Shown here: piece after piece, positions 39,459 to 63,948 of the stretch
Layout of the letters: each line of letters begins with the position of its first letter
How positions within the stretch are numbered: position 1 is the first letter of the stretch
Origin: a virus
Taxonomy: Duplodnaviria > Caudoviricetes
Reading direction: 5' to 3' (one strand)
IMG/VR virus record: IMGVR_UViG_2728369266_000003
Coordinates: 1,258 to 65,257 of that record
Length of the DNA stretch: 64,000 nt
Translations under genes and position numbers: made by a program
Notes under the pieces: generated by a model
The model's database searches: none
What the model saw: the letters and a program-made list of their open reading frames with translations, nothing else
Told to the model about the DNA's origin: nothing

Positions 39459-39466
39459 GAGACACC

Positions 39467-41449: not shown

Positions 41450-41468
41450 AACTGTGCGGCTAGTGATT

Positions 41469-41503
41469 GGCCCCGCATCTCTTCGGAGGTGCGGGGCCGT
41501 TTT
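41469..41503 (+). terminator. Intrinsic terminator ending late operon
   Basis: 13-bp stem, cUUCGg loop, T-tract. Confidence 0.9.
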
Positions 41504-41565
41504 CGTATGCCCACCTTGGGTTGCTCGTGACTCTGTCAAGCCCGCACGCCGGGCAGCAGCGGTCC

Positions 41566-42543
41566 ATGGCCCGGATCGAGCCGATGCTGGCGAAGCTCGT
41601 CGAGAAGATTCCCGAGCCGGGCGCCTGCCGGGGCGGCTGCCGCTACGAACCCAAGCTCGACGGCTTCCGGGCGCTCGGAACGGTCGCAGAGCGGGGCGCC
41701 GGCCTGACCTCCCGCACCGGCAAATCCCTGAGCGCGGTCTTTCCTGAGGTGCGCGATGCGCTGTTCGACCGGTTGCCGGAGTGCACGGTGGACGGGGAGA
41801 TCGTTCACTGGACCGGGCAGCGATTCGACTTCAACGCCCTGCTCAGGAGGAACGCGACCAGGGGCGGGTGGCGGGCACTGGAACTCGCCGCGCAGGAACC
41901 CGCCTACCTCATCGTGTTCGATCTTCTCGAAATCCAAGGTGAGTCGCTGCTGCGCCGACCCCTGACCGAGCGCCGTGGTCGCCTGGAGGAGGTCTTCGCC
42001 GACGTGCCGCGCCCGTCGCTGATCCAGCTCGGGATGCAGACCGCCGACGTGGAGGTGGCGCGGGAGTGGGTGGAGGCGCTGGGACCCCTCGGTGTGGAAG
42101 GTCTGGTGATCAAAGCCGCCGACGGGGCGTACACGCCCGCGAAGCGGGGCTGGTCGAAATGGCGGATCCGCGACACGATCGACGTGATCGTCGGCGGCGT
42201 CACCGGGAAGGCGACGTCCCCCCGCGAGCTGGTGCTCGGACGCTACGACACCGCAGGCAGGCTGGTGATCGTGGGCCGCTCCACACCGCTGCGCACCGCC
42301 GAGGCCGCCGACCTCGCCGGGCGACTCCACCCGGCCGGCCCACACCACCCCTGGCCGGAGACCCTGCCGCCCCGGTGGGGGAGCCGCACCCGCACCCGGT
42401 ATGTGCGGGTGCGCCCCGAGCTGGTGGTGGAGGTGTCAGCGGACGTCGCCCAGGACCAGGGGCGGATGAGGCATCCGGCCAGGTACGTCCGCCCCCGCAA
42501 CGACGTGGGGCCGGAGGACGTGCCAGTCGTCCCCGAACGGTGA
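41566..42543 (+). CDS. ATP-dependent DNA ligase (LigC-like)
   Basis: EPKLDGFR, VDGEIV, IVFDLL, EGLVIK; OB domain ELVVEVS. Confidence 0.93.
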   Translation: MARIEPMLAKLVEKIPEPGACRGGCRYEPKLDGFRALGTVAERGAGLTSRTGKSLSAVFPEVRDALFDRLPECTVDGEIVHWTGQRFDFNALLRRNATRGGWRALELAAQEPAYLIVFDLLEIQGESLLRRPLTERRGRLEEVFADVPRPSLIQLGMQTADVEVAREWVEALGPLGVEGLVIKAADGAYTPAKRGWSKWRIRDTIDVIVGGVTGKATSPRELVLGRYDTAGRLVIVGRSTPLRTAEAADLAGRLHPAGPHHPWPETLPPRWGSRTRTRYVRVRPELVVEVSADVAQDQGRMRHPARYVRPRNDVGPEDVPVVPER

Positions 42544-43115: not shown

Positions 43116-44534
43116 TCACGCCGGGGCGGGTTCGGCGATCTCGGCGATCTCGTTGCAGAGCCTGCGCGAGGACCACAGGACCAGGCCGACCAGGTCCACG
43201 ACGTGGCTGTTGCTGGTTTCGTGGGCGGCGACCTTCATCGCCTGCTCCGCGGCGTCGGTCACGAAGGCGGTGAACAGGTCGACGGCCTGGCGCTCGGCGT
43301 CGTCGCCGCCGCGCAGCAGCCGCCGCAGGTCGTTCTCCCACTGCGGGCGGGCGGCGTCGACGGCGGCCCGCGCCGCTCCCGCCGCGACGGGTTCGCGGTC
43401 CCGCTGGTAGGCCTTCGCGGTGACCTCCCCGATGCCGTCCTCGGCCGTCTTCAGCATCGCGACCAGCCGCCCCAGGCGGGCGTGGGCGGCCGTCTCGGGC
43501 ACCAGCGCGGAGGCGGGCAGCGCGATCTCGCGGCGGGTGGTGTCTTCCACCGTCGCCCCGTGGAGGTTGGTGATCATCTCGGTGGTCTCCACCCCGATCA
43601 GTCCGTCCACGTGGTGGTGGCGCGCGGCCAGCCACCCCGCCACCGCCGGCGCGGCGTCGGCGTCTTCGTACAGGCCGGGGACGGTGAACTGCAGACCCCG
43701 GGCGCAGACCTCGCGGTGGCTCGCGCTGGCGGACTGGCCGCGCCCGATCAGCGGGTCGGGGTGGGACTTGAGGTCATCCCCGGCGCACACCACCACGGTG
43801 CGCACCATCCCGTCGTCGTCGCGAACCAGGCGGATGCGGCGGCTGGGCCAGCACAGGTAGTCCACCATCCCGGCCGGGGAGCGGTCCTTGCGGCGCTCGG
43901 TGACGGGCTCGGTGCGCTCCCACCAGCCCTCGCCGCGCGGCGCCTCGGCGCCGGGGGCGAGGTTGAGCAGCAGGGTGCGGCCCAGGTCGGGGCCCAGCAG
44001 CCGGGTGTGGGTGCGGCGCCCCACCGACCCCAGCGGCACCCCGGCCTCACGCCCGCCGCCGTGCTTGCCGCGGATGCCGCCGGTGTCATAGGCGTGGCAC
44101 CACACCAGCCACCGGGCCGCCTCGGCCGGACTCAGGGCGGTGGGGCGCGCCCAGGTCATCCCGCCGCCGCCGGCCCGCCCGTAGGCGGTGATCTTCTCCA
44201 CCGGGTTGAGGGTGCCCTCCACCGGGTCCTGGGCGAAGGGGCGGTCGGGGTCCAACAGCCGCCAGCGGCCGGCCCCGATGCGCTCCAGGGCGTCCAGGGG
44301 CAGCCCGCCCCGGTACAGGTCGCCCCACCGCCCATCGTCCACGGGCCCGCACAGGCGGTGGGCCACCGCCAGCAGCAACCGGAACAGCGCCACGGTCAGC
44401 GTGGGGTCCTCGGCGCATACGTCGCGGATCGCCCCGGCATCCTCCAGCGCCTGGCGCACCCCCACCTCCCCCACCCGCCCGTCGGCGTAGACCACCGGAA
44501 TCCACGGGTCGGTGAACAGATCCAGGTCACGCAT
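43116..44534 (-). CDS. cas8e: Orphan type I-E Cascade large subunit homolog (Cas8e/Cse1/CasA)
   Basis: DLFTDPWIPV, ALFRLLLAV, RPFAQ, LSPAEAARWLV..HAYDTGGI, LGRTLLLNL, YLCWPSRRIRL match Cse1 motif order. Confidence 0.85.
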   Translation of the reverse strand: MRDLDLFTDPWIPVVYADGRVGEVGVRQALEDAGAIRDVCAEDPTLTVALFRLLLAVAHRLCGPVDDGRWGDLYRGGLPLDALERIGAGRWRLLDPDRPFAQDPVEGTLNPVEKITAYGRAGGGGMTWARPTALSPAEAARWLVWCHAYDTGGIRGKHGGGREAGVPLGSVGRRTHTRLLGPDLGRTLLLNLAPGAEAPRGEGWWERTEPVTERRKDRSPAGMVDYLCWPSRRIRLVRDDDGMVRTVVVCAGDDLKSHPDPLIGRGQSASASHREVCARGLQFTVPGLYEDADAAPAVAGWLAARHHHVDGLIGVETTEMITNLHGATVEDTTRREIALPASALVPETAAHARLGRLVAMLKTAEDGIGEVTAKAYQRDREPVAAGAARAAVDAARPQWENDLRRLLRGGDDAERQAVDLFTAFVTDAAEQAMKVAAHETSNSHVVDLVGLVLWSSRRLCNEIAEIAEPAPA

Positions 44535-45693: not shown

Positions 45694-46404
45694 CTACTCG
45701 TAGGGGTCTCGGTCATAGCCGGGGCGGAAGGTCACACCACGCTCCTGGATCATCTGACACACCTTCACCAGTGCCGCCCTCGCGTCGGGGGACGCGTCCC
45801 GGGTCATCGCGCGCACCTCGTCACGCAGGAAACGCCGCTCAGCCCGCTCGATGGACTCACTGTCTCGTAGGACCAGGGTGAGGATGTCAGCCAGCAGCGG
45901 ATCCTGCTGCTCTTCGGTCTGGCCGCATGCGATGGCGTAGTGGTGCAGGACCGAATCCACCAGCGTCTCGACCGCTGCCTGGCGGTCCCCTCTGGGGATG
46001 GGCCGCCCTGAGGGGCGGGGCCGGTCGGCCACCGCTCGTGCTCCGGGGTTAGCTTGCCGTTCCGTTGGGGTGATGGGGCGGGGCGGCAGGCCGCAGGCGG
46101 CCCGGATATGGTCTTCGCCGTCGCGGCACCACCAGCATTCCGAGGTGCAGCGCACCACCAGGTCGGGCGGGCCGGCCTCTGGTTCGTGGATGGCGCCGAC
46201 CCAGTACCCGTGTACGGTCCACCCGCCCAGCGGCGCCAGGTCATCCACCTGGGTGGGGACCGATTCGCCGTCACGGTGCAGGGAGTGCACCCACATCGGC
46301 TCGCGCCCCGGCCAGCGGAGCCACGTCCGGCCCTCGCGGTCGACCCGCGTGGCGACTGGGGCCAGAGTGGGGGTGTGCCAGAGGGCCACCGGGTGCCCAG
46401 TCAT
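45694..46404 (-). CDS. Hypothetical protein with CxxxCxxC...H...C motif
   Basis: ATGA coupling. Confidence 0.65.
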   Translation of the reverse strand: MTGHPVALWHTPTLAPVATRVDREGRTWLRWPGREPMWVHSLHRDGESVPTQVDDLAPLGGWTVHGYWVGAIHEPEAGPPDLVVRCTSECWWCRDGEDHIRAACGLPPRPITPTERQANPGARAVADRPRPSGRPIPRGDRQAAVETLVDSVLHHYAIACGQTEEQQDPLLADILTLVLRDSESIERAERRFLRDEVRAMTRDASPDARAALVKVCQMIQERGVTFRPGYDRDPYE

Positions 46405-46721
46405 AATGTGTGCTCCCATTCTCGTTCTCGCCCGCGCCGCATTTCGATCTTCACCCACTTGCCGGTGGACCTCCGCATGGACTGAACGTAGGCATACCCG
46501 TCTCGGAATTCGGTGCCGTTGGGTAGCACCAGCCTGAGGTTGACGGATCGGCCGATGTGGGTGGAGTCCCCACGAACCTTCCATCCCTGGACAAGGATGC
46601 GGTTGCGGCCGAGATCCACGGGCGGGTCGAACAGGTAGATGACTGTGCTGGTGCCATCGCGCCAGTACGCGGTGACCTCGCCGTAATGCTCCCGCTTGGG
46701 CTTGTCTGGTTGGTCGGTCAC
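46401..46721 (-). CDS. Hypothetical protein
   Basis: GGAGG SD. Confidence 0.6.
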   Translation of the reverse strand: MTDQPDKPKREHYGEVTAYWRDGTSTVIYLFDPPVDLGRNRILVQGWKVRGDSTHIGRSVNLRLVLPNGTEFRDGYAYVQSMRRSTGKWVKIEMRRGREREWEHTL

Positions 46722-47152
46722 GGGACCCTCCTCAGTGTGGCGCCACCGCAGCTCAGCAGATTCTCAGCGTCGTGGGACCCAGTTCGCTCCACCACGGGCT
46801 CGGCGATGTCTCGGTGGGTGATGGTGGTACGCCACGCCCCGAGTCGGGCCTGGAGTAGCAGCGCGACGCTGGGTGCCCGATGGCGTCCTCCAGCGCATCC
46901 GACCGCGACCCTCACATGACCTCCAGAAGGGCCGGACTGCATGGCGGCCACGGTCCGGGCCGTAGCGCGGATGAGGTGCGGGATGCCCGGGGTGTTGCGG
47001 ACAGCATCGCGCACGGCTTTGTCGTGGGCGGTCATGTAGCGGAGTTCAGGGGCTACATGCGGGTCCCGAAAGTGGTGGCGCAGGTCCACGGTGATGTGGG
47101 CGTCGTCGGGTGGTGGCCCGTGTAGGTAACCGAAGCTGATGATTTCAATCAT
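46718..47152 (-). CDS. RapZ C-terminal-like domain protein
   Basis: ISFGYLHG, DLR.HFRDP, VAVGCAGGRHR. Confidence 0.85.
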   Translation of the reverse strand: MIEIISFGYLHGPPPDDAHITVDLRHHFRDPHVAPELRYMTAHDKAVRDAVRNTPGIPHLIRATARTVAAMQSGPSGGHVRVAVGCAGGRHRAPSVALLLQARLGAWRTTITHRDIAEPVVERTGSHDAENLLSCGGATLRRVP

Positions 47153-47397
47153 GGCGACGCCTCCAGGGTGAGCTCGGGCGCCCCGCCGAGGGGCGCATAG
47201 AGGGTGATGGTTCCGCACCCGGTCGGACACGACGCACGGAGGGTTATGTCACCGCAGGCCGCGGTGCGGGACTGGAGTGTCCATCCGGACAGGCACCCCT
47301 CCAGGTGGGTGTGGGTGGCCCACTGGGGTTCGGGTGGGGTGGCGGGGGTGCCGAGGGTCTGGTCGGCCAGCTCGGCGGCCCTGTCCGCGGCGCTCAT
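47149..47397 (-). CDS. Hypothetical protein
   Basis: Coupled ORF. Confidence 0.5.
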   Translation of the reverse strand: MSAADRAAELADQTLGTPATPPEPQWATHTHLEGCLSGWTLQSRTAACGDITLRASCPTGCGTITLYAPLGGAPELTLEASP

Positions 47398-47981
47398 GCT
47401 GGCACCGGCACAGCCGCGGCCCGCTGCGCGATCCGCTTCAGGTCCGCCTTGGGGAGGGTGATGGTCCCGAGGTGGGTCAGCCAGTGGCACCACACCGGCT
47501 CCAGCCCCGGGTTCCGCTGCCACTCGTCCTCGGACACATCGCTGCGGGTGTAGGCGGCGGTCCGCTCGGCGAGCGTCTGGAGGGTGGCGGCGGTGACCCA
47601 GCGGGCGTCCCGCGTCTCCCCCTTCTGTGGGCGGAGTGGGTACCCCTCGAACACGGTGGCTTCGTAGATCCACCAGTAGTGCCCCGCCTCACCGGAGTGA
47701 CCGTCCGGCAGGTACTGGGACGGGCCGCACCGGTTGGGACGCCACCCCTCGGCGACGAGGCGGTAGTCACTGACCGTCTGCCCGACCTCCTCGCTGACTT
47801 CGAAGGTGAGCGCTTCCTCGGGGCCGTCGAACTCGTCGAAGACGTGGCCGGCGACGGGCGCGACCCCGCTGGGTCCGTCGCCGTCGCGGGTGATGACGAC
47901 GTACTCGGGGCCGTCGTCGCCGGGGCGGGTGATCAGGATTCCGACGCTGTGCTGGTCGCAGCGCCACGGGTCCTTGGGCAC
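47394..47981 (-). CDS. Nudix hydrolase (divergent)
   Basis: CDQHSVG, PVAGHV...EVSEEVG Nudix-box variant. Confidence 0.75.
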   Translation of the reverse strand: MPKDPWRCDQHSVGILITRPGDDGPEYVVITRDGDGPSGVAPVAGHVFDEFDGPEEALTFEVSEEVGQTVSDYRLVAEGWRPNRCGPSQYLPDGHSGEAGHYWWIYEATVFEGYPLRPQKGETRDARWVTAATLQTLAERTAAYTRSDVSEDEWQRNPGLEPVWCHWLTHLGTITLPKADLKRIAQRAAAVPVPA

Positions 47982-48104
47982 AGGATCCTCCTCACGGCGG
48001 CTGCCGTCGATGATGACGGCGCCCACCGACATGTGGGTGGGGGTGGACCGTCCGGTCCCCCCGTCCGCCCCACACACGTTGGGGCGGCGGAGGCACTGGC
48101 ACGG

Positions 48105-49499
48105 TCAGTTGGTGCTGTCGGCGGACGTGGCCTCGGGCTCCGGTGAGGACTCCAGCCACTCCTTCACGTACCGGTCGACGGTCGACTTCGGCACTTCGGT
48201 GAGTCGGCTGATCTCTCCGAGCGTCATCTTGATTCCAGCCCGGCGAGCTTCCTCGAAGCGGGCAACGACGCGCTGCTTGCGCTCGTCCCAGTCGTCAGGG
48301 ACGTAGTCCGGGATCTCGATTTCGGGGGTGTCCGACGTCTTGGTGGGACGCTTCGCCGACGCGGTCTTGGGACGGCTCGACGGCTTCCCGGCGGCCGGCT
48401 TGGGACGGTTGGTGGGACGGGGGGCACGGGCCGCGGTGGGACGCTCGGCCGGCGTCTCATCGGGCTCGGTGGGACGCGGCTGCGGCACCTCCGTGGGACG
48501 GTCCGCCAGCGTCTCGTGGGACGGTCCGGTGAGACGCCCCACGGGAATGGTTGGGACGGTCCCGTGGGACGTCCCATTCGGGGTGTGTGGGACGGGGGTG
48601 GGACGGTCGAATGGGACGGTCTCGGGCGCCGTCTCACGGGGCTCGTGGGACGCCTCTGTGGGACGGTCCGCCGCGTCGGCTGGGACGGTGCTGTGGGACG
48701 CCTTACCCGCCCGCCGTGGGACGGCCATGGTGTCTCGCTTCTCGGCAAGGTGCAGCAGCACGCTCGCCAACCCGAGCACCAGAACCGGCAGCACCGACAC
48801 GAAGATCACCACCGGGGTGGGGGCGCTCGTCGGCTGGGATTCCAACGACAGCAAGTGGTAGGCGGCCTGCCCGACGGCGCCGATCACGAGGGACCCGATT
48901 GCGGAGCACCACGCGAAAAACCGGGCGCCACCAGTGACGATGCCGGACACGGCCACGTAGAGGGCGATCCCGGCGTAAGCCTCGATGCCGAGCGGGAGGG
49001 TGATCGACAGGTCCACGACGAGTCCGCCGCCGATGCCGGGCAGCAGGTTGACGGGGCCGAATCCGGCGAGGCGGCCGAGGCCGACCCAGCCGCCCCAGAT
49101 GGCGACGAACGCGGATGCGGCGACGAGTCCGACGACGCCTCGGAGGGTGTAGAGGGTGCGCTTGCTGGGGCCGTGGGACGACCAAGCACCCGTCCCACGG
49201 GGCGTCTCGTTGCGGGCGGTGGGACGCGTCCCATCCGCTGTCCCATTCTGCGTCTCATCGGCCTGCGTGGGACGAGTCTCAGTGGCCGTCCCAGTGGGGG
49301 TGTGGGACGGCGTGTTGGGACGGTGTGGGGCGGTGCCGTTCGGCGGGTCGTGGGACGCCCCGTGGGACGGCTGAGCGGTGTCGGTGGGACGCCCCTGTGG
49401 GACGGCCGTGGGACGGCTGTCGGGGTGTCCCATGGGACGGTCGGCGGGACGCGCGAGCGCCGTCTGCGGGACGGTCCCGGGCGGCGTTTCGGCGGTCAT
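48105..49499 (-). CDS. Spread/DUF2637-like membrane protein with low-complexity flanks and C-terminal HTH
   Basis: About four TM helices (LPLGIEAY, SVLPVLVLG); TLGEISRLTEVPKSTVDRYV. Confidence 0.75.
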   Translation of the reverse strand: MTAETPPGTVPQTALARPADRPMGHPDSRPTAVPQGRPTDTAQPSHGASHDPPNGTAPHRPNTPSHTPTGTATETRPTQADETQNGTADGTRPTARNETPRGTGAWSSHGPSKRTLYTLRGVVGLVAASAFVAIWGGWVGLGRLAGFGPVNLLPGIGGGLVVDLSITLPLGIEAYAGIALYVAVSGIVTGGARFFAWCSAIGSLVIGAVGQAAYHLLSLESQPTSAPTPVVIFVSVLPVLVLGLASVLLHLAEKRDTMAVPRRAGKASHSTVPADAADRPTEASHEPRETAPETVPFDRPTPVPHTPNGTSHGTVPTIPVGRLTGPSHETLADRPTEVPQPRPTEPDETPAERPTAARAPRPTNRPKPAAGKPSSRPKTASAKRPTKTSDTPEIEIPDYVPDDWDERKQRVVARFEEARRAGIKMTLGEISRLTEVPKSTVDRYVKEWLESSPEPEATSADSTN

Positions 49500-49566
49500 T
49501 TGGATCTCCAATCTGGGACGGTGCGGCGGTATCCCACAGGGGTCGGGTGGGACGGACGGTGGGACG
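48345..49566 (+). repeat. About 34 polar GGGACG (mostly TGGGACGS) hexamers in two clusters
   Basis: Hand count: 18 in 48345-48723, 16 in 49175-49566; only a few reversed. Confidence 0.9.
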
Positions 49567-49567
49567 G

Positions 49568-49666
49568 TCAGAAGGTGATGACGCCAAGGCCGACGAGCAC
49601 GGCGAAGGCGAGGGCTGCGATCGAGCCGACGATGCCGATCAGGCCGAGAGTGGCTTCGAAGTCCAT
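49568..49666 (-). CDS. 32-aa single-TM peptide
   Basis: AAGGAG SD; MDFEATLGLIGIVGSIAALAFAVLVGLGVITF. Confidence 0.65.
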   Translation of the reverse strand: MDFEATLGLIGIVGSIAALAFAVLVGLGVITF

Positions 49667-49677
49667 GACGCTTCTCC

Positions 49678-50100
49678 TTAGCGGGAGCCGATGACGGTGA
49701 TGGCGGCCGCAGCAGTCAGCGCGACCCGATGAAATGCCTGGTCAAGGTGCATTCGTCCACCTCGATCCCAGAACGGGCGCTTCCCGGCGGCGTCGACCAG
49801 GGCGAGGGAGTCCTGCTGCCGGTCCATGTAGTAGTGCGTCGCAGCGGACAGGGCCTGACCTGCGACGATGCTGGTTGGGTGCAGGCCCAGCTTGAAGACC
49901 TGGTTGGCGAGCAGGACAGCTGCGGTCGTGGTCGCGGTGTAGCTCGCGACGTGGCGGGCGCACGCGGCCGCTCCGTCGGCGCCGGGCTTGCCCTTGACCT
50001 GGGCGTCCTCGTCGCGCTGCACCCAGAAGTCGCCCGCCTCGTGGGCGACGTTGAGGGCGGCGAGGGTCGCGGCGAAGGCGGCGACTCGGGCGGGGTTCAC
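49678..50100 (-). CDS. DUF3307-like membrane protein
   Basis: HEAGDFWVQ, RHV, HYYMDR, DQAFH. Confidence 0.85.
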   Translation of the reverse strand: MNPARVAAFAATLAALNVAHEAGDFWVQRDEDAQVKGKPGADGAAACARHVASYTATTTAAVLLANQVFKLGLHPTSIVAGQALSAATHYYMDRQQDSLALVDAAGKRPFWDRGGRMHLDQAFHRVALTAAAAITVIGSR

Positions 50101-50140
50101 TTCATCCTCCTGGTTGCTGTGTGTAAACCTGAACTATGGT

Positions 50141-50284
50141 TTGTCTCTTGTCTCACCCGGTCGCGGGAGAGGGGGTCTAGCGGCCTCTGAGGCGGCTATC
50201 TGACGGCTAAAATGCGGACGAATCGTGACAAATGGGGCGCGCGTGCTGAGACAACGGCAGGGTTTGTCTCAGCCCTTTGTCTCA
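50141..50284. repeat. TTGTCTC(A) repeat cluster, candidate clt
   Basis: Direct copies 50141, 50148, 50264, 50277; inverted copy 50247; just downstream of traB. Confidence 0.7.
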
Positions 50285-50301
50285 CTACGGAGAGTCACAT
50301 G

Positions 50302-52518
50302 TCAGGCGGCACGGCGCTCCCACAGGCCACGCTGACCCGCCACCAACCGCACCGTCCCCGCCTCCGCCAGCTCGTCCAGCGCCCGGTTCACGGTGGCCCG
50401 AGAGCAGCCGAGTTCGGCCCGAACCGCAGCCTCGATGTCGCCGCGACGCTGTGGACCGGCTGCGAGCACAGCGAGGATCGCGTCGCGGGCACGGTCCCGA
50501 TCCGACTGGTCAACCTCGACGAAATCGGCGACGTTCGGGAACGCCACCACCACACCCGCCGACGGACGAGGGGCGACCGACGACCCTTCGCCGAACAGCA
50601 GCTCGCGGACCCCGAGCTTGCCGCCGAGGAACGCCGTCACCGCGTGCGCATCCTCAGCAGCCCGCTGCTCAGCGGACCGGTCGTGGCGCCGCGAGTACAC
50701 CCCACCCAACGCGAGGTCCACCGCGCGGGCGGCCTCAGGCTCCAGGGTCAGCGACGGCCCGACCGCCTGGATAAGGGCGCCGAGGTCTTCGTGGTAGCCG
50801 GCACGCCACATCGCGCGCCGCGCCTCCACGCTCCCCTCGTTGGTGGTCTCGTTCGCGGCGATGCCGTACCCGCCACCCCGAGGAAGCTCAGTCACGCTCA
50901 TCGGCGCCTTGGGGGCGATGGCGCCCCCGATCGCGTCCTGGGAGTACATGAGCGCCACGTTCGCGCTGAACAGGTTTCCCCTGATCACGCGCCCGGGGTT
51001 GCCGTCGCCGCCGAACGCGCCCATCCCCGTGTCCTGCGACGCCGCGATGACCGCGACACCGCACTTGCGGCCGATGCGGGTGAGTTCGTTGACGAGTTCG
51101 GCGTTGGTCCAGGTGCCGAGTCCGGCCGGGTCGGCATCCTCGTCGAGGTGCTGTGCCTGCGGGTCGATCCGCCGGTAGTCCGACAGGATCGTCATGTGCG
51201 ACTCATCCAGGATCAGCACCAGGCCCGGCCTGGACGGTGTGGGGGTGAAGCCCTTGCGGCGCATGGCGCGGTTGGTGCGCATCCGAACCCGCAGCACGAT
51301 CACCGCCGCCTCCAGGGCGATGCGGCGCAGTTCAGCGGTGGCGGAGGCATCCCAGTCGGCGGTGTCCTGGAGTGCGGGCTGGGTACCCTCCTGCCCGTCG
51401 ACGTACCAGTAGATCGTGCACCCCGACATCCGCATGCCGAGCGCGAGCAGGTTCAGCAACTCGCTCTTGCCGGACTTCTGGGCGCCGAACAGATACCCAC
51501 CGAGCAGGCTGTTGGGACGGTACAGGCCCCAGGTGTGCATGCCGACCCCATCGGAGTGGGGGCCGACGGTGATGTCCCCGGTCTCCGGGTCGTAGACGGG
51601 ATGCCCCATGATCGTGGGCACCCCATCGACGACATCGACGGGCACGATTCCGGCGGTGGGGGAGGAGTCGGTGATCCGCAGCAGCGCCAACTGCGGAGAC
51701 TCCGAATCGTGCGGACCGACCGTGATCATCCGCTTGGGGACGTTCAGGGCGACACTGATCTCCGCCACCATGTGCTCCAGAGCCTCCAGACCCCGACCGG
51801 TGGGCTTGAAGTGGATGGTCCACTCCCGGCCGTACTCGGTCTTGGCCTGGTCCGACAGCCAACTCCCGGACGCGGCGCCGTTGCGGGAGCCGATGTGCTC
51901 GGCCCACAGCGCCGCGATGTCGTCCACCTGCACGGTGGACGACATCGCGGGGGTCTGCGGGTGGTGGCCGATGCGGTGGATGCGCCACCAGTGCGCCGCC
52001 AGCACATACACCCCCACCAGCCCCGAAGAGGCCAACACCTCCCACTGGTCGGTGAGCGCGGCGGCGATGAGCCACACCCACGCCGCGGCACCGACGAGCA
52101 GCGCCCGCAGCGGGTGCTCCCGCAGCCACACCCCGGCCTCCAGCAGCCAGCCCTTCTCGGCGCGGCGGATGAGCGCGATCGTGGTCGAGATGGCCAGCGC
52201 GGTACCGGCCGAGGTGACGAAGGCGTTCGCTTCGGCGAGCAGGGCGAGTTCCTGGATCAGCCCGATCGCGGCGACGGCGCCGGCCGCGAGCCACGGCTGG
52301 TACTGGAGACGCAGCCGACGCCGCATGGACTCCTCGTCCACCTGCCGCAGCCGGACGAATGCCTCACGGGCGCGCACGTGCGCGGGCAGCCGCTCGGACA
52401 CCGCCTGCTCGACGGGCGCGCGCTGCTTCGTCTTCGCGGCGCGAGTCGACGCACGCCGCAGGTCACGCTGGAAATCTCCGATCAGGTCGTCGACCTGGCG
52501 GCGGGTCGTGGTCGCCAT
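50302..52518 (-). CDS. traB: TraB-like FtsK/SpoIIIE DNA translocase
   Basis: N-terminal TMs, Walker A GAQKSGKS, Walker B LILDESH, GRKCGV..IAASQ, C-terminal winged HTH. Confidence 0.85.
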   Translation of the reverse strand: MATTTRRQVDDLIGDFQRDLRRASTRAAKTKQRAPVEQAVSERLPAHVRAREAFVRLRQVDEESMRRRLRLQYQPWLAAGAVAAIGLIQELALLAEANAFVTSAGTALAISTTIALIRRAEKGWLLEAGVWLREHPLRALLVGAAAWVWLIAAALTDQWEVLASSGLVGVYVLAAHWWRIHRIGHHPQTPAMSSTVQVDDIAALWAEHIGSRNGAASGSWLSDQAKTEYGREWTIHFKPTGRGLEALEHMVAEISVALNVPKRMITVGPHDSESPQLALLRITDSSPTAGIVPVDVVDGVPTIMGHPVYDPETGDITVGPHSDGVGMHTWGLYRPNSLLGGYLFGAQKSGKSELLNLLALGMRMSGCTIYWYVDGQEGTQPALQDTADWDASATAELRRIALEAAVIVLRVRMRTNRAMRRKGFTPTPSRPGLVLILDESHMTILSDYRRIDPQAQHLDEDADPAGLGTWTNAELVNELTRIGRKCGVAVIAASQDTGMGAFGGDGNPGRVIRGNLFSANVALMYSQDAIGGAIAPKAPMSVTELPRGGGYGIAANETTNEGSVEARRAMWRAGYHEDLGALIQAVGPSLTLEPEAARAVDLALGGVYSRRHDRSAEQRAAEDAHAVTAFLGGKLGVRELLFGEGSSVAPRPSAGVVVAFPNVADFVEVDQSDRDRARDAILAVLAAGPQRRGDIEAAVRAELGCSRATVNRALDELAEAGTVRLVAGQRGLWERRAA

Positions 52519-52624
52519 GACACCTCCCTGGATTCGTTCGTGGTGGTCGGCTCGCAGCCCGCCCGAGCGGTGGCATCTCGGGCGAGGTGCCAGCCGGGCG
52601 CCCGCAGGGGGCGCACCGGATGGG

Positions 52625-52894
52625 TCAGTCGGCGGTGAGGAACTTCTTGTCGCCCGCGTCAGGGAACGCGGTGTAGGCGTCATCAACGCCCTTCATCCGC
52701 TGCAACTCGGATTCGGAGGCGCCAGCGATCCGGTACATCCGGGCGGCGCTGTCCTGCAGCTGGGTGTACTTGGCCAGGATCGACTGGCCGACCTGGCCCC
52801 GTCGCATCGCCTCCACGGCCTGGTCCAGGCTGACCATGTTCGACTTCGTCTCCAGCCGCAGGTTGGTGGTGAGAGACATCGCGTCCTGATACAT
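52625..52894 (-). CDS. Helical protein paralogous to C-terminus of upstream gene
   Basis: MRRGQVGQ...DAYTAFPDAGDKKF. Confidence 0.7.
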   Translation of the reverse strand: MYQDAMSLTTNLRLETKSNMVSLDQAVEAMRRGQVGQSILAKYTQLQDSAARMYRIAGASESELQRMKGVDDAYTAFPDAGDKKFLTAD

Positions 52895-52895
52895 G

Positions 52896-53780
52896 TCAGA
52901 CCCCCTGCTGCTGGCTGGTGAACCACTGCTTGTTGCCGGCATTGGGCGCCGCCTCGTAGGCGTCGCGCACCACGAGCTGCTTCTCGCAGAGTTCGACAGC
53001 CTCCGCCGCGAGGGCGGTGAAATGCTCGGCCTCGGCGGCGGCCTGCTCGAATCGGAGGATGGCGGCCTGCCCGACGCCTCCCTGCCGCATCTGGGCAGCC
53101 TGCTCTTCGAGCTTCTGCTGCTGCTTCTGGGCGGTTGCGTGGAGGGCTCGGGTGTAGCGGGTGGCCCCCTGGAGGCCCAATACCTCGGTGGCGTTCGGAT
53201 CGGCCATGTCGTCTCCCTCGATGGTTGGGTTGCGGCGGAACTGGAGAACGTTCGTGCCAGCCGGTGGGGTCGGCTGCTCGTGGGCGGGGACGGCGCTGGC
53301 CTTAGGCCATACGGGCTCCGTCTTCGGGGTGGGATTCTGATCAGCGTTCGGCACGGACTCGGGCTTCGGCTGCGCGTCGTCCGCCGCAGGCTCAGGAGTG
53401 GTCGGCGCCGGAGCCGACTCCGGCTTCGCCTCTTCCTGCTTGCGCTTCGCCGGCTCGCCGGCCTTCGCCTCTCCGTCGGGACCGAGGGCATCGCTGGCCT
53501 TGGCTTTGATGTGCTCCCACACCTCGCGCCGCTCCGCGTGCCGCTTCTCCCGCCGGGCACGCGCCTTCGCCGACCGCTCCGGATATTTCTCCGCCATCTC
53601 CTGCCACTTGGTGTCCCACACGGTCCACAGGTAGCCGCTCATGGCTCCCTGCTTCGCCTGCTTGGGTGCGCGCGGCGGGAGCGGCGGCTTGGCCTTGCGG
53701 TACTCGGTCACCGCGTTGATCGTCCCGGGGATGTCCCGGAAGATCATGACGACGGCGATGAGGATCGACAGCTCAACCAT
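52896..53780 (-). CDS. AICE transfer-region (TraA-like) protein
   Basis: N-terminal TM, P/E/A linker, helical C-domain; upstream of traB. Confidence 0.6.
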   Translation of the reverse strand: MVELSILIAVVMIFRDIPGTINAVTEYRKAKPPLPPRAPKQAKQGAMSGYLWTVWDTKWQEMAEKYPERSAKARARREKRHAERREVWEHIKAKASDALGPDGEAKAGEPAKRKQEEAKPESAPAPTTPEPAADDAQPKPESVPNADQNPTPKTEPVWPKASAVPAHEQPTPPAGTNVLQFRRNPTIEGDDMADPNATEVLGLQGATRYTRALHATAQKQQQKLEEQAAQMRQGGVGQAAILRFEQAAAEAEHFTALAAEAVELCEKQLVVRDAYEAAPNAGNKQWFTSQQQGV

Positions 53781-53786
53781 GGCTGA

Positions 53787-54221
53787 TCACACCCCGCCGA
53801 TCAGCGTCATCAGCATCGTCTGACCTGCGTCCGTAGCCGCCCCGGTGAACTGGTCACCCATCAGGCCGAGCTGGCCGCCCGTGGCGAGCAGCAGGGTGGG
53901 GATCACCAGAGCCATGGACTTCGCCATCCCGTCCGGGCGACCGTCGACCAGGTCCACCACGATCAGGACGACCCCGATGAACGCGGCGACCCCGACCAGT
54001 GCCAGCGGCGCGCCGACCATCTGGAGGACCATGTCGAGCAGCCATCGGGTCCAGTCGCCGAGGAACGTCATCGCCACGGCGCATCCGGCGATGACGGCGC
54101 ACACGAACGCGCCCCACTGGGCCTGGCTGCGGAATTTCCGGACGCGGCCGAGGACCCACATGAGTCCGAAGAAGGCGATCGCGACCACGAGCATCGTCGA
54201 GTTGAAGAGGAACGAGAGCAT
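53787..54221 (-). CDS. Spread-type integral membrane protein
   Basis: Four hydrophobic helices; GGAGG SD. Confidence 0.7.
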   Translation of the reverse strand: MLSFLFNSTMLVVAIAFFGLMWVLGRVRKFRSQAQWGAFVCAVIAGCAVAMTFLGDWTRWLLDMVLQMVGAPLALVGVAAFIGVVLIVVDLVDGRPDGMAKSMALVIPTLLLATGGQLGLMGDQFTGAATDAGQTMLMTLIGGV

Positions 54222-54243
54222 TCTGAACACCTCCTCCGGAGGG

Positions 54244-54627
54244 CTAGGTGGTGACCAGCGGCGACAGGAGCACGCTGGCGATGGAACGGATGAACGGGAT
54301 CTGCCACAGGCAGACCAGGAGAACGAGGGTGGCGATGGCACGGGACGGACGTTCGGCGAGCCACGCCAGGTAGTAGGCGCCCGCGGTCACGGGGATCGCG
54401 ACGAGGCGCCCGTACCAGACTCCGGCGGTGCGGGCGCGGCCAGTGGCGCTGGTCCAGTCACCCTTGGTGGCGTAGGTGTGGATATCGCGGAGGCTCGGGC
54501 GGCTCTCAGCCCAAATCTCCGGCGGCGTCCACGTGGCGACCACGCCGCGGGCGCGGTCCTTGAGGCCCGGCTTGGCCTGCTGCTGCTCGTGGACCTTCTC
54601 AGGCGCAGTGGACGCGGCGCTGTTCAT
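54244..54627 (-). CDS. AICE-type membrane protein
   Basis: RPSLRDI...W, two C-terminal TMs. Confidence 0.65.
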   Translation of the reverse strand: MNSAASTAPEKVHEQQQAKPGLKDRARGVVATWTPPEIWAESRPSLRDIHTYATKGDWTSATGRARTAGVWYGRLVAIPVTAGAYYLAWLAERPSRAIATLVLLVCLWQIPFIRSIASVLLSPLVTT

Positions 54628-54914
54628 CGGACGCCCACAACTTCAGAGGCCCGCACCCACACCTCGGGATCCTCGGGCCGGTCGTCGATCTGGAGTAGCG
54701 CCCAGGTGCCGGAGTAGCGGTCGTCAAGCTCGGCGATCACCGCGTCCCGACCGTCGTAGCGGACCCGGGTGCCGACCGCGTCGGGCCGGCGCCGCACCGC
54801 GAGGGGCCGGAGGGTGAGGGTGTAGCGGTCTGACAGCCACCCGTGGACGCCGAACAGCGCCCCGGCCACTGCGGTGAGGAGGATGCCGGGCGTGAACAGG
54901 TCGAAGAGGTCCAT
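54624..54914 (-). CDS. Membrane-anchored small protein
   Basis: N-terminal TM; TGATG coupling. Confidence 0.6.
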   Translation of the reverse strand: MDLFDLFTPGILLTAVAGALFGVHGWLSDRYTLTLRPLAVRRRPDAVGTRVRYDGRDAVIAELDDRYSGTWALLQIDDRPEDPEVWVRASEVVGVR

Positions 54915-55120
54915 CAGGCTGCCCACCCTCCGAACTCGTCGGCCGTCTCAGCGGCCAGCTGGTCGACGCGGGCGGTGGTGGCGATAGCGAGTCGGTTGGT
55001 GGTGTCGCGGGCTTCGGCTGCGAGCTGGTCGACACGGGCCTGGACGGCGATGTCACGGCTGCGGGTCCCGACACCGACGAACCGGATGACCTGTTCGTCG
55101 CTGCGGGGTACGGTGCTCAC
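54914..55120 (-). CDS. Hypothetical protein with ARVDQLAAE duplication
   Basis: AAGGAG SD; internal repeat. Confidence 0.55.
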   Translation of the reverse strand: MSTVPRSDEQVIRFVGVGTRSRDIAVQARVDQLAAEARDTTNRLAIATTARVDQLAAETADEFGGWAA

Positions 55121-55197
55121 GAGACTGCTCCTTCCTTTGCTGGTGTGTGCGGATCTCAACTGGCCCTGGGTGGCGGTGATGGCGCCCCCGGGGCCGC

Positions 55198-55395
55198 TTA
55201 GTGGCGGCTGCGGGTCCATTTCTCGCCGGACCCCTTGCAGGCCGTGCAGGCCAGCCAGCCCTTCGCCCCGGGGCTGTAGTAGCGGGCCGCCCGGAGACGT
55301 GCGGCGCTCCGAGGGTGGGTGGTCGGGTCAAGGCTGGTCACGTAGGTGCCGCACGCCCCGTTGCAGGTTGGGCATTTCTCGCGGGTGACGGTCAT
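55198..55395 (-). CDS. DnaJ-type Zn-finger small protein
   Basis: CPTCNGAC...CTACKGSG. Confidence 0.65.
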   Translation of the reverse strand: MTVTREKCPTCNGACGTYVTSLDPTTHPRSAARLRAARYYSPGAKGWLACTACKGSGEKWTRSRH

Positions 55396-55586
55396 CGGAT
55401 GTCCCCCTTCTGGGTTTTGCCGTAGAACCCGTCGGTTGGGTCGGTGGTGTGGGAGCGGTGGACGCGCCACCCGTCGGCCGTGACGACCAGTGGGTTCTTC
55501 GGGCTTTCTTCGTGTCCGCAGGCGGAACAGACGTGGCGGAGTCCCCGGTGGTCGCGGTCCTGCTGCTGCTGGGAGATCCAGTTCAC
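55392..55586 (-). CDS. Small CxxC/His protein
   Basis: CSACGH...H..H. Confidence 0.6.
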   Translation of the reverse strand: MNWISQQQQDRDHRGLRHVCSACGHEESPKNPLVVTADGWRVHRSHTTDPTDGFYGKTQKGDIR

Positions 55587-55768
55587 GGCTGCGCCTTCCT
55601 GGTGGCTGGTCTGTGGTGGGTCCGGGCCGGTGTGGGACGGGTGTCCGGCCCGGACCCTGCCCGGCACGTCGCGGGGGCGGTGTGCCGGGCGGCGGGCCTG
55701 CGTGGCGACCCGCCAGCCGCGAACCCCGGTGGAGGGGCACTCACCGGGTGGTCGCGGCCGTGTGGTGG

Positions 55769-55927
55769 CTAGTGGATCTCCTCGACGTAGACGCGGGTCG
55801 GCTCGCCCCACGTGGGGCGGCTCGCGTTGAACTCGCGGGCGACCCTCTCGGCCTCGTCTCGGGTGTCGAAGGTCTGCTCTAGGTGCGGTTCGGGCTGGTC
55901 GTCGAAGTACAGGCCGTACTTGCTCAT
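55769..55927 (-). CDS. 52-aa hypothetical protein
   Basis: GGAG SD; MSKYGLYFDDQPEPHLEQTFDTRDEAERVAREFN. Confidence 0.6.
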   Translation of the reverse strand: MSKYGLYFDDQPEPHLEQTFDTRDEAERVAREFNASRPTWGEPTRVYVEEIH

Positions 55928-56063
55928 CTGGGCTGCTCCACGGTGTGGTGGTTGGTGGCCCCGACCCTGGCGGCCAGGACGGCGACGTCAGAGCCGGGGT
56001 GGTTTGGGGGCCTCGCGGCTGGGCCTGTTACTCCGGGGCGGGAGGACCCAACCGCGAGGCGTT

Positions 56064-56306
56064 CTAGGGGGCGGACCTGCGCCACTCGATGGCGAACTCT
56101 TCGATGGAGACGGTTCGCCACTGCGCGGCTTCCACGAGTGCATCGATGAACGCTCGGCTGACCAGCGCACGACGCCCGATCTTCAAACCGGGAATCTGCC
56201 CAGCGTCGAGCTTCCGTCGGATGCTCATCCCCGAGAACCCGACCAGTCGGGCGGCCTCGTTCACTGAAATGAACGGACCGTCAGTGTCGGACTCGGGCGG
56301 TGTCAC
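56064..56306 (-). CDS. HTH_17 excisionase/Cro-like DNA-binding protein
   Basis: ISVNEAARLVGFS..SIRRKL..GQIPGLKIGRRALV. Confidence 0.85.
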   Translation of the reverse strand: MTPPESDTDGPFISVNEAARLVGFSGMSIRRKLDAGQIPGLKIGRRALVSRAFIDALVEAAQWRTVSIEEFAIEWRRSAP

Positions 56307-56337
56307 TGGTCCTCCTAGGTGCTCTTGCGTCACCACC

Positions 56338-56366
56338 ACTATCAGCCTAGAGAGCCTTAGTGTCAA
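56338..56366 (-). promoter_or_regulatory. Leftward promoter for HTH-spd-tra arm
   Basis: TTGACA-N17-GATAGT. Confidence 0.7.
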
Positions 56367-56518
56367 GGAGAAGTTTGATCCCTAGATCACTGAACGCACG
56401 TGGGTCACTCAGGGAACTGAGGGAACGAGGAATTTGGGTTCCGGACCGACCGTTGACCCCGATGTACGCTGACCTAGGTACCAAAGAGAGCAAAGAGCCC
56501 ACAGATAGCGAGGCATCC

Positions 56519-57274
56519 ATGACACCGCGCCGGCCAGTGAGCTACCTCCAGGTCGCCGAGGAGCTACGCCGCCGCATCCACAGCGGCGAGTACGGCCCCG
56601 GTGACCGGATTCCGTCCACCAGCCAACTCCAGGAAGAATTCGACTGCGCCAACACGACCATCCAGCGAGCCATCCGCGAACTCAAGCGCGAGGGCATCGT
56701 CGAAGGGGCGACCGGATCAGGCGTCTTCGTGCGCACGGTTCGCCCCGTCATGCACGTGACGGCCTCCTACGTCACGCAGGTCGGAGACCAGCCCCGCGCC
56801 TCGTGGAAGTCCGAGGCGGAACGGCTGGGCATGCGAGGCGACCAGCGCATCACCCACGTTGGGACCGTGGAGGCGCCACCGGAGATCGCTGTCCACTTGG
56901 GTGTGGACGAAGGCGAGCCTGTCGCCATCCGCCGCCGTGTGATGCTGCTCGATGGCGAACCCGTGCAGCTGGCTGATTCCTACTACCCGCTCGACCTCGC
57001 GCAGGGCACGCCGCTCGCAGCCCCCGGCAAGCTGGTCGGCGGGACGGTCGGCGTCCTTGAGTCCCTGGTGGAACTCGGAGACTTCGAGGAGAAGGTGCGG
57101 GCGCGCGCTGCTACTGCCGACGAGCAGCGGGACCTGAAGTTGAATCCCGGGGCGATCGTGCTGGTGATGATCCGGACGACGCTCACCACCGATGGGCGCC
57201 CTGTCGAGGTGGGGTACACGGTGCTGACGGCTGATCGCCATGAGCTGTGCTATCGGCTGCCAGCCCGCGCGTGA
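56519..57274 (+). CDS. GntR/UTRA repressor (KorSA/TraR-like)
   Basis: YLQVAEELRRRI..GEYGPGDRIPS..L..EF; UTRA domain. Confidence 0.92.
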   Translation: MTPRRPVSYLQVAEELRRRIHSGEYGPGDRIPSTSQLQEEFDCANTTIQRAIRELKREGIVEGATGSGVFVRTVRPVMHVTASYVTQVGDQPRASWKSEAERLGMRGDQRITHVGTVEAPPEIAVHLGVDEGEPVAIRRRVMLLDGEPVQLADSYYPLDLAQGTPLAAPGKLVGGTVGVLESLVELGDFEEKVRARAATADEQRDLKLNPGAIVLVMIRTTLTTDGRPVEVGYTVLTADRHELCYRLPARA

Positions 57275-57303
57275 ACGGAGCGCCCAGGAGGCGCACCAGC
57301 CGA

Positions 57304-57335
57304 GAGAGCCCCGACTGTGACCGGTCGGGGCTCTC
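57304..57335. terminator. Bidirectional terminator
   Basis: GAGAGCCCCGAC / GTCGGGGCTCTC. Confidence 0.8.
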
Positions 57336-57346
57336 GCATGTTTCGG

Positions 57347-57589
57347 CTAGACGATGAAGGTTCCCTTGGCTGGCAGTGTGCGGACGGCGCCGCGGTCGCG
57401 CAGCACCCTGATGGCGCGTCGAGCCGTGTCAATGGAAACCTCGTACTCGGCGGCGAGGTCGCGCTCACCGGGCAACCGCGCACCGGAATTCAGGTCTCCT
57501 GAGGCGATACGCGCCTCGATGTGGTCGGCCATCTGAACGTAGACGTACTCGTGCGGCGCTGGCTCCCACGCCGCAAGATCATCTGCCAT
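57347..57589 (-). CDS. Single-domain GntR winged-HTH regulator
   Basis: YVQMADHI..RI.SG......LPGERDLAAEY.VS..TARRA. Confidence 0.88.
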   Translation of the reverse strand: MADDLAAWEPAPHEYVYVQMADHIEARIASGDLNSGARLPGERDLAAEYEVSIDTARRAIRVLRDRGAVRTLPAKGTFIV

Positions 57590-57698
57590 GTACCCCACCG
57601 TAGAACGGTGCTGAGCTGCGCCGATGTAGGCAGAGCGGCGCACCGCTATGCGCCGCGTGGCACCGCTCTGTAGGCTCCGACCGGAGAGAGGGGGAGCG

Positions 57699-57944
57699 AT
57701 GGCAGAGGACATGTATGTCCTTGTCGGACATGCCGGGACGCGGGAGCGGGCCCGGATACTGGCCGAGACCGTCGAAGGCGTGTACTGGGCGGACGCTGAA
57801 CCTGGCGGTGACCTGATCGTGGTTGACCCGGAAGGTGTGATGCGGCTCGCCAAAGGCGGCGGGATGTGGGTGCGGGACGACGACTACGAAGTGCACATGG
57901 CGGACGGGTCGATCCTTCATCTGACTCCGGTGAAGGCGCGGTGA
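57699..57944 (+). CDS. Hypothetical protein divergent from small GntR
   Basis: GGGGAG SD. Confidence 0.6.
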   Translation: MAEDMYVLVGHAGTRERARILAETVEGVYWADAEPGGDLIVVDPEGVMRLAKGGGMWVRDDDYEVHMADGSILHLTPVKAR

Positions 57945-57963
57945 CGGAGGGCATCTACACGCC

Positions 57964-58362
57964 ATGACCACCGAAGCTCTCGTGTGCGCAGCCGTTGTCG
58001 TCCGTGCCGGACACCTGTTGCTCGTTCGGCGACGCGTTGCTGAAGGGTGTCTGTCGTGGCAACTCCCGGCCGGCAAGGCGGAACCGGAGGAGTCCGCAGA
58101 GGTGGCCGCGGCGAGGGAGGCGCTGGAAGAGACCGGCGTGCTCGTCGAACCGGTCCAGTACCTCGGCGAGCGGGTCCATCCGTTGACCCGACGCAGGATG
58201 GCCTATGTCGCTTGCAAGTTCGTGTCTGGCGAGGCTCACGTCGTAGATGCGGATGAGATCGCCCAAGTGGCCTGGGCTGCTCCCGACGAATGGAGTGACC
58301 TGGTGCCTTACGGATTCGCGCCGATGGTGCAGGACTACCTCGCCAGCGTGGAAGCCTGCTGA
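57964..58362 (+). CDS. Nudix hydrolase (AICE MutT/Pif-like)
   Basis: WQLPAGKAEPEESAEVAAAREALEETG. Confidence 0.92.
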   Translation: MTTEALVCAAVVVRAGHLLLVRRRVAEGCLSWQLPAGKAEPEESAEVAAAREALEETGVLVEPVQYLGERVHPLTRRRMAYVACKFVSGEAHVVDADEIAQVAWAAPDEWSDLVPYGFAPMVQDYLASVEAC

Positions 58363-60031: not shown

Positions 60032-60125
60032 CCCACCGCCCGCCCGGATCCAGCCGGCGCCCCGGGTGCAACGCCCGGGGCGGGCGCGTCCCCTCACTCA
60101 CTCCTACTGCAAGGGAGACCCAACC

Positions 60126-63905: not shown

Positions 63906-63948
63906 CTGGGGGTCAAGGGGTCGCAGGTTCAAATCCTGTCATCCCGAC
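63906..63948 (+). tRNA. 3' half of tRNA-Pro(GGG): att core (attR), not an intact gene
   Basis: CTGGGGGTCAAGGGGTCGCAGGTTCAAATCCTGTCATCCCGAC runs from anticodon loop to acceptor; no D-arm upstream. Confidence 0.9.

Follow-up and report, generated by a model that had tools for sequence, protein, structure and literature searches.

The stretch of DNA analysed here (the window: 64,000 nucleotides of the Caudoviricetes record IMGVR_UViG_2728369266_000003) makes up about three quarters of an 86.5-kb element in which the genome of a temperate siphovirus stands beside a conjugation-type (tra) module, and the phage genes and the tra module very probably constitute a single replicon. The module spans 45.4–58.4 kb of the window, between the siphovirus tail genes and the phage attachment site (attP), and is centred on a gene for a TraB-like translocase of double-stranded DNA (dsDNA). 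By analogy with the plasmid-phage pZL12, it is plausible that the element could travel both in virions and by conjugation between hyphae. We regard the full explanation, one replicon with this dual-route mechanism, as moderately likely.

The window corresponds to bases 1258–65257 of contig C12 (65,257 bp) in a 6.97-Mb genome (G000) assembled into 22 contigs. C12 has a GC content of 68.5%, compared with 73–75% in the large contigs, and a second contig, C18 (21,431 bp), has 69%; the element as a whole stands at 0.685–0.69 and the chromosome at about 0.74. In this assembly, adjoining contigs still overlap by 95 bases at their ends. The 95 bases at the start of C12 are the reverse complement of those at the start of C18, and the 95 bases at its end are the reverse complement of those at the end of C18, with no other match. 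The 95-mer at the start of C12 also occurs inside the chromosomal ssb gene on C3; it is the sole 95-mer shared with the chromosome and accounts for the contig break between C12 and C18, a joint that is itself spanned by a single-stranded DNA-binding protein (SSB) gene of the element. Because both ends of C12 overlap C18, the two contigs close into an 86,498-bp circle without a true chromosomal link. The host is a Nocardiopsis-like actinomycete, not a Streptomyces.

No tRNA gene was found in the window by ARAGORN or Rfam searches. Instead, 45 bp at 63906–63950 (+) are identical to the part of the chromosomal tRNA-Pro(GGG) gene that runs from the anticodon loop to the 3′ end, and form the attP core. 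When the 66 host tRNAs were blasted against the circle, this core was the only tRNA fragment detected. The chromosomal gene (C4:256921–256995) is intact and is followed by chromosomal sequence, so that attB is empty. With attP in the window and attB unoccupied, the element is not integrated in this assembly; it is present as free, excised or virion-derived DNA. The original prediction, made from the letters of the window, had described an integrated prophage with a tRNA-Pro att at its far end and had proposed a search upstream for attL and an integrase. Its single tRNA-Pro-derived site stands, but as a 45-bp attP fragment rather than a tRNA gene or an attR; the prophage does not, as there is no attL to find, and the integrase lies on C18 directly beside attP. 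This tyrosine integrase (548 aa; L002:9728–11374, C18 19728–21374) ends about 13 bp beyond the attP core. It carries a LacI-family helix-turn-helix (HTH; Pfam, 3.6e-12) between its N-terminal SAM-like and catalytic domains and is 50% identical to the integrase of phiM2, a circular phage-plasmid of Streptomonospora litoralis; its homologues on phiM2 and on a Streptomyces plasmid carry only a LacI-regulator annotation.

The phage component comprises the complete set of a temperate siphovirus: terminase, portal, capsid of the HK97/P22 class, tape measure, endolysin, integrase with attP, and repressor. The packaging and head genes (20828–25554, +) include the large terminase (20828–22153), the portal (22172–23761), a scaffold-like gene (23842–24594) and the major capsid gene (24619–25554); the terminase, portal and capsid products are 57%, 55% and 77% identical to the terminase, portal and major head protein of Streptomyces phage Hiyaa. 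The tail module (30217–39458, +) comprises a tape measure gene (30217–33660) with an NLPC_P60 domain (1.8e-12) and distal tail proteins, and shows 30–37% identity to tail genes of phiZL12, the phage form of pZL12. The endolysin (11905–13281, +), with an amidase-like and a peptidoglycan-binding domain (PG_binding_1, 4e-12), is 62% identical to the amidase of Thermobifida phage P1312. C18 contributes the integrase, a cI-like HTH gene, exonuclease and RecT genes, a replication initiator (phrog_8064, 4e-82), HNH genes and a D12 methylase. Read around the proposed circle, the order would be attP, integrase and cI-like repressor; exonuclease/RecT, replication initiator, methylase and SSB; early genes with a second recombinase, and endolysin; terminase, portal, capsid and tail; ligase and an orphan cas8e; and then the tra module, GntR, Nudix and a toxin-antitoxin pair, back to attP at the tRNA-Pro 3′ end. 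This is the layout of an ordinary temperate siphovirus, with the stretch from tail to attP as the usual cargo position.

The gene for the TraB-like protein, which like the other genes at 45.4–55.9 kb is on the minus strand, occupies 50302–52518. Its open reading frame (50302–52686) has 794 codons, and the start is most likely at M57 (position 52518), which gives the 738-aa product under which it is listed in the protein collection. The protein has three N-terminal transmembrane (TM) helices, an FtsK-type ATPase with Walker A (GAQKSGKS) and Walker B (LVLILDES) motifs, and a C-terminal winged HTH (wHTH) that matches the GntR, MarR and ArsR types. A tblastn search of the phage collection with TraB gave nothing at 1e-5; homology to phage FtsK-like proteins emerges only with profiles. 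A profile of 117 relatives, out of a family of 625 clusters, performed better. Against PDB sequences this profile matched EccC/FtsK (5e-19) and FtsK (2e-8), and in hhalign it matched the Tra protein of pIJ101 (probability 98.4%, E 9e-15) over 402 columns that include the C-terminal HTH, and Hiyaa gp102 (98.7%). An AlphaFold2 model built with the 117-member alignment had a pLDDT of 88.5, and Foldseek placed it closest in the PDB to the pCW3 coupling protein TcpA and the FtsK motor on DNA (∼1e-10); a first model, from 17 sequences, was poor (pLDDT 54) and was not used. With an FtsK/SpoIIIE-type ATPase core, a membrane anchor plus wHTH, and homology to an experimentally defined Tra protein, the product is, as judged from its sequence, a TraB-type translocase. 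A 40-bp near-perfect palindrome (95%) lies within the traB coding region, at 51912–51950.

The closest TraB homologues are found in Nocardiopsis, at 37–57% identity; the label "Streptomyces-type" given to the module in the original prediction thus describes its mechanism class but not its nearest kin. In our collection, which holds no other genome of the host's genus, 200 further genomes of the host family included just 5 with a close homologue. The N. coralli homologue belongs to a 22.5-kb AICE (actinomycete integrative and conjugative element). A 48-bp repeat of a tRNA-Thr 3′ end marks the boundaries of this AICE, which encodes a tyrosine integrase of its own and yielded no match to any structural protein of the phage described here. 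In a three-contig genome (G149) the homologue sits on a 24.5-kb contig, a plasmid, with GntR, four-TM, 294-aa and DUF3307-like genes. The genes common to the module and to the N. coralli element or the 24.5-kb plasmid are those for TraB, the four-TM protein, the 294-aa protein, and the DUF3307-like, Nudix-like and RapZ_C-like proteins, and no terminase of the present type was found in three Nocardiopsis genomes or in G031. Because the closest TraB relatives sit in small, phage-free elements, these comparisons support the view that the module is a TraB-type system of AICE or plasmid ancestry that would now share one replicon with a phage, and the AICE link drawn in the original prediction holds.

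Such an origin raises the question of whether phage and AICE are only apparently joined, as tandem or nested elements with degenerate att sites or as a product of the assembler. The circle is read from 95-mer overlaps, the nearest tra relatives are free-standing AICEs and plasmids, and the element has two tyrosine recombinases. The second of these (3967–5253, −; 428 aa; Pfam Phage_integrase, 1.4e-7) is 30% identical to a pZL12 integrase/recombinase and is likely a plasmid-type resolvase or a second integrase of a phage-plasmid backbone; it is paired with a PIN-domain gene (5633–6454, +; PIN_4, 1e-11), and the same pair occurs on an S. europaeiscabiei plasmid. Against a two-element origin, no contig break separates the tail genes, the tra module and attP-int, the module lying inside C12, flanked by tail genes at one end and by attP-int at the other, and GC content is uniform across the module boundaries. 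Self-comparison revealed no direct repeats of at least 25 bp flanking or inside the element, there is no second tRNA fragment, and neither an internal att copy nor an att pair bounding the tra module by itself was found. An 18-bp direct repeat (43299 and 58711) does bracket the module; it is at chance level (E 0.1), lies inside the cas8e open reading frame, and was rejected as an att site. Furthermore, the attP integrase resembles that of phiM2, with no relationship found to the integrase of the N. coralli AICE, and the same layout recurs in P1312, phiM2 and a prophage of genome G265. We consider an apparent joining very improbable; the data point to phage genes and a tra/kor/Nudix module on one replicon with a single attP, as had been proposed.

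The remaining genes of the module are those of a plasmid-style transfer locus. Upstream of traB lie four small Spd-like genes (52896–54926, −), at 52896–53780, 53787–54341 (four TM), 54244–54627 and 54624–54926, each predicted to encode at least one TM segment; the products of 53787–54341 and 52896–53780 are 52% and 33% identical to those of TraB-adjacent genes on the 24.5-kb plasmid (G149:C3). Farther along is an Xis/MerR-type HTH gene (56064–56366, −; HTH_17, 6.7e-6) with a borderline score of 26.7 bits (cut-off 27). A gene for a GntR/UTRA (HutC-type) regulator resembling KorA/KorSA (56360–57274, +; UTRA 2e-25, GntR 3e-18) lies divergent from the tra operon, and this divergent Tra/GntR arrangement is shared with pIJ101, phiZL12 and the S. 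europaeiscabiei plasmid. A second, HTH-only GntR-type gene (57347–57853, −; GntR 1.7e-15) probably has an internal true start, since the domain is confined to the C-terminal 64 residues. Beyond it is a Nudix hydrolase gene (57964–58362, +; NUDIX, 3e-19) that recalls Pif in its position and its domain; in pSAM2, conjugal immunity is conferred by Pif, a Nudix protein (PMC3218068).

On the other side of traB, immediately downstream, is a gene for a small DUF3307-like protein (49678–50100, −; phrog_2470, 1.8e-16), with homologues downstream of the FtsK-like gp102 of Hiyaa, in phiZL12 and on plasmid G149:C3. Next comes a gene for a 468-aa membrane protein (48105–49511, −) with at least three predicted TM segments, arms rich in proline and threonine, and a C-terminal HTH (HTH_IclR, 5e-4); its core is 55% identical to P1312_062, the neighbour of the P1312 FtsK-like gene. 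A pairwise BLASTP comparison with a DUF2637 protein was not significant, and the gene is called neither DUF2637 nor TraA. It is followed by a diverged Nudix-domain gene (47394–48077, −; NUDIX, 2.4e-6), which is kept downstream of TraB in Nocardiopsis loci (37–39% identity), and by a gene for a protein resembling the RapZ C-terminal domain (46718–47230, −; PF22740, 5e-23; phrog_18111, 2.9e-50), with homologues in the N. coralli AICE (50%) and as P1312_067. Of the genes named in the original prediction, the TraB-like FtsK ATPase with its TM anchor and wHTH, the spread-type membrane genes, the Xis-like HTH, the KorSA-like regulator and the Nudix gene were all recovered, as was the tail module upstream (30.2–39.5 kb); for the TraA-like gene the family could not be verified. 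The prediction had also noted that no RepSA was visible, and a PF20199 search found none on C12 or C18, the only matches in the genome being on C7 and C11. The lack of RepSA and of the AICE's own integrase, together with the usual cargo (moron) position between late genes and attP, is what one would expect if the module were inert, an AICE fragment that was captured and has since lost its expression or function. We find this improbable: all of its open reading frames are intact, TraB retains every invariant residue of the 117-member family alignment and has a confident predicted fold, codon GC3 is no lower than that of the phage genes, and regulatory genes and repeat arrays have been retained.

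Two sets of repeats are candidate cis-acting sites for TraB. The first is an array of 34 same-strand copies of GTGGGACG(G) at 48345–49566 (+), two genes downstream of traB, which could serve as a clt or TraB recognition array. Over the entire window GGGACG shows no enrichment (112 copies, 120 expected), but this interval contains 34 copies on the same strand, which extend to GTGGGACG(G); of all 7-mers in the circle, TGGGACG alone is tightly clustered. Sixteen, eight and seven copies of GTGGGACG lie in frames 0, 1 and 2 of the 468-aa gene, encoding RPT, SH and VP, and three lie outside it; their spacings cluster near multiples of 11–12 bp (at 11–13, 22–24 and 33–35 bp), which is close to helical repeats rather than to multiples of three. 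In P1312 the homologous gene contains 22 same-strand copies of another 8-mer, ACCGGACC, again in three frames (8, 6 and 8). The S. europaeiscabiei plasmid and G265 also have dense arrays of 7-mers, but these are single-frame peptide repeats and were rejected as DNA-level signals. The second candidate is a set of five TTGTCTC repeats at 50141–50283, in the gap just downstream of traB, where all five copies of the window fall within 143 bp. Either set could be the predicted clt; the arrays may also be iterons or another kind of binding array.

The combination of a phage with TraB is not new, contrary to what the original prediction implied: pZL12/phiZL12 is a precedent, and FtsK/TraB-like genes are also found in the Hiyaa group, P1312, phiM2 and Streptomyces plasmids of about 90 kb. 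Experiments have established pZL12/phiZL12 as a plasmid-phage whose tra locus works (Zhong et al. 2010, J Bacteriol 192:3747; PMC3583192, PMC4487206), and its conjugal transfer is reported to require the major tra gene and adjacent genes (PMC3583192). For no other element have both phage infectivity and plasmid conjugation been shown; pSLE1 and PhiNon1 have been described as similar to it. Like the present element, pZL12 (NC_013420; 90,435 bp, circular) has a siphovirus late operon and a TraB-type locus on one circular replicon of about 90 kb, with an FtsK/TraB-like gene, adjacent membrane-protein genes and a divergent GntR gene; in pZL12 this locus lies beside the late operon and includes two large neighbours of the FtsK-like gene and small open reading frames. 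The two also share the 30% identical recombinase, related tail genes and a methylase. However, pZL12 has ParAB and is maintained as a plasmid, while the present element has an integrase and a tRNA-Pro attP, with no ParA or ParB found. In addition, matches at E ≤ 1e-4 are limited to 8 of the 122 predicted proteins, the TraB proteins belong to different clades, and the hosts are of different orders.

Other relatives share different parts of this plan. P1312 (KT021004), an isolated virion genome with a Nocardiopsaceae host, has genes for FtsK-like, 468-aa-like membrane and RapZ_C-like proteins between its lysis genes and integrase, as well as a related replication initiator and endolysin and the multi-frame 8-mer array in the homologous membrane gene. 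It differs in its size (60 kb), its serine integrase and the lack of an annotated GntR/Nudix pair, and its FtsK-like protein is of the Hiyaa type, with no BLAST match to the TraB of the window. phiM2 (NZ_CP036456; 89,998 bp, circular) resembles the present element in its LacI-HTH integrase and phage structural genes, and has a DUF2637 gene and a 718-aa FtsK-like gene adjoining int; in contrast, it has ParB-type genes and a P22-type capsid, and shares 11 of 122 proteins. The Hiyaa group (Hiyaavirus), with genomes of ∼83 kb, shares the capsid, terminase and portal and an FtsK-like gene followed by a DUF3307-like gene, but has no annotated integrase or GntR/Nudix set, and the remaining genome is unrelated. 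FtsK-like proteins are encoded by the isolated phages Hiyaa, Spocter, Keanu, Galactica and P1312. A 92.8-kb circular plasmid of S. europaeiscabiei, present also in a second, near-identical record, has portal and tail genes and a terminase gene (54% identical) together with a 781-aa TraB-like gene, DUF2637, GntR, ParA, a tyrosine recombinase and PIN. With pSAM2-type AICEs and pIJ101-type plasmids the element shares the TraB/Tra architecture, a divergent GntR gene (KorSA/KorA), Spd-like genes, a Nudix gene (Pif) and a tRNA-Pro 3′-end att. It differs from them in having no RepSA match, an integrase of the phage-plasmid type, and 86.5 kb with a full phage genome, where pSAM2-type AICEs are small (about 9–25 kb) and have no virion genes.

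The original prediction had proposed to search genomes for a terminase and TraB within single att-bounded elements. We surveyed 400 other genomes of the host family, defining the capsid type by at least 60% identity (the survey includes the unpublished genome G124, on which no claim rests), and found it in 12. In six of the 12, one of the two best-scoring TraB-family genes lay on the capsid contig, at a distance of 26–35 kb in five genomes and of 63 kb in the sixth; such proximity is expected at random in ∼1% of cases in a genome of 8–10 Mb. In the complete genome G265 the order is ligase, TraB-family gene, GntR, tail, capsid, portal, terminase, methylase and early genes, a small rearrangement relative to the present element, and a ligase homologue adjoins the TraB-family gene; no att boundaries of this prophage were definable within 100 kb. 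These data suggest that the pairing of this capsid with TraB is recurrent, not accidental.

How the single replicon might work can be proposed from these parts. In a lysogenic or plasmid-like state, the KorA-like GntR protein would repress the divergent tra operon. Upon derepression, membrane-anchored TraB hexamers would bind a cis site through their C-terminal wHTH, the best candidate being the GTGGGACG array, and would pump the circle as double-stranded DNA into an adjacent hypha, with no need of a relaxase. Spreading of the DNA across septa would fall to the small membrane proteins, and the Pif-like Nudix protein would limit redundant transfer. The integrase could insert the element into tRNA-Pro(GGG), and upon induction the PBSX/P22-type terminase would package the same DNA into Hiyaa-type capsids. 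We infer the activity of every step, above all conjugation and virion production; that the module actually mediates conjugation, a proposal made by analogy, seems to us evenly balanced.

Several observations weigh against the dual-route explanation. The only evidence for the circle is the 95-mer overlaps of the assembly graph, and a free circle could simply be induced or replicating phage DNA. Searches with ParB_N (PF02195) and AAA_31 ParA (PF13614) gave no match on C12 or C18, other partition types not having been searched; with neither a partition system nor RepSA found, stable plasmid maintenance is unproven. On its own TraB falls below the Pfam FtsK_SpoIIIE (PF01580) threshold, and its homology needs profiles. 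The GTGGGACG array lies in a coding region rich in proline and threonine, and part of it may reflect peptide repeats. A host CRISPR array (G000:C5:309487–310630; 30-nt repeat, at least 17 units) includes a spacer of which 35 of 37 positions are identical to the element (window 8389–8423). The host has therefore met the element or a close relative, and the standing of the element in this strain is contested.

FtsK-like genes also occur in phages that behave lytically, as P1312 did (PMC4569894), which suggests that the module may serve the phage in another way: it could move phage DNA between hyphal compartments or into spores, or act on host septation or development, as a standard accessory of the lineage rather than a second route of transmission. 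The Hiyaa group and P1312 are not known to conjugate, ftsK has been listed among the actinophage genes that possibly manipulate development (PMC10117723), the authors of the P1312 study proposed a role in DNA segregation (PMC4569894), and a TraB-family gene recurs with this capsid type. Such a role is nevertheless rather unlikely in our view. The present element has a full plasmid-style set of genes, with a divergent GntR repressor, Spd-like membrane genes and Nudix; the nearest relatives of the module are in phage-free AICEs and plasmids; and the homologous locus of pZL12 is reported as needed for conjugal transfer.

If the module is active, as the dual-route explanation holds, the element would have two routes between hosts, one of them requiring neither receptor nor lysis, and this would bear on host range, on escape from CRISPR (given the host spacer) and on the exchange of modules between phage-plasmids and AICEs. 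Compared with pZL12 it would be a differently built example, integrative, with no ParAB found and with an AICE-type tra module. To what is known of such elements it adds the recurrent co-occurrence of capsid and TraB and a concrete candidate clt, and the repeat arrays offer a concrete DNA target for TraB specificity. More tentatively, a widespread lineage of temperate actinophages with Hiyaa-type capsids, in Streptosporangiales and Streptomyces, might routinely use TraB-type dsDNA conjugation as a second route, each with its own helically phased 8-mer array (GTGGGACG here, ACCGGACC in P1312) as the TraB loading site. Were this possibility borne out, such phages could pass through mycelia independently of lysis and receptors.

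Between the tail genes and the tra module are an ATP-dependent DNA ligase gene (41467–42543, +; DNA_ligase_A_M, 1.5e-30) and an orphan Cas8e/Cse1-like gene (43116–44534, −; Pfam CRISPR_Cse1, 1e-51), with no other cas gene or array nearby. Between the module and attP are a gene for an endonuclease-domain protein (61586–62449, +; phrog_3312, 9e-20) and a MazEF-like pair (62605–63185, +; PemK_toxin, 4e-4), and ∼56 bp at 60032–60087 (C12 61289–61344) are 88–92% identical to sites on C9, C2 and C1, a short dispersed repeat. Elsewhere in the host, RepSA genes are present at G000:C7:425523–426896 and G000:C11:12013–13548, the latter ∼1 kb from an FtsK-like match; these loci are two classical AICEs that coexist with the phage element. 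Contig G000:C16 (42,222 bp), both ends of which share one 95-mer that also links to C11, encodes a 746-aa FtsK_SpoIIIE-domain protein and is possibly another circular conjugative element of the same host. Finally, parts of the distal tail region (window 38076–39623 and 34983–37131; C12 39333–40880 and 36240–38388) show 72–79% DNA identity to C9:179637–183640, which by this similarity is a related prophage or tail-fibre cassette in the host chromosome.

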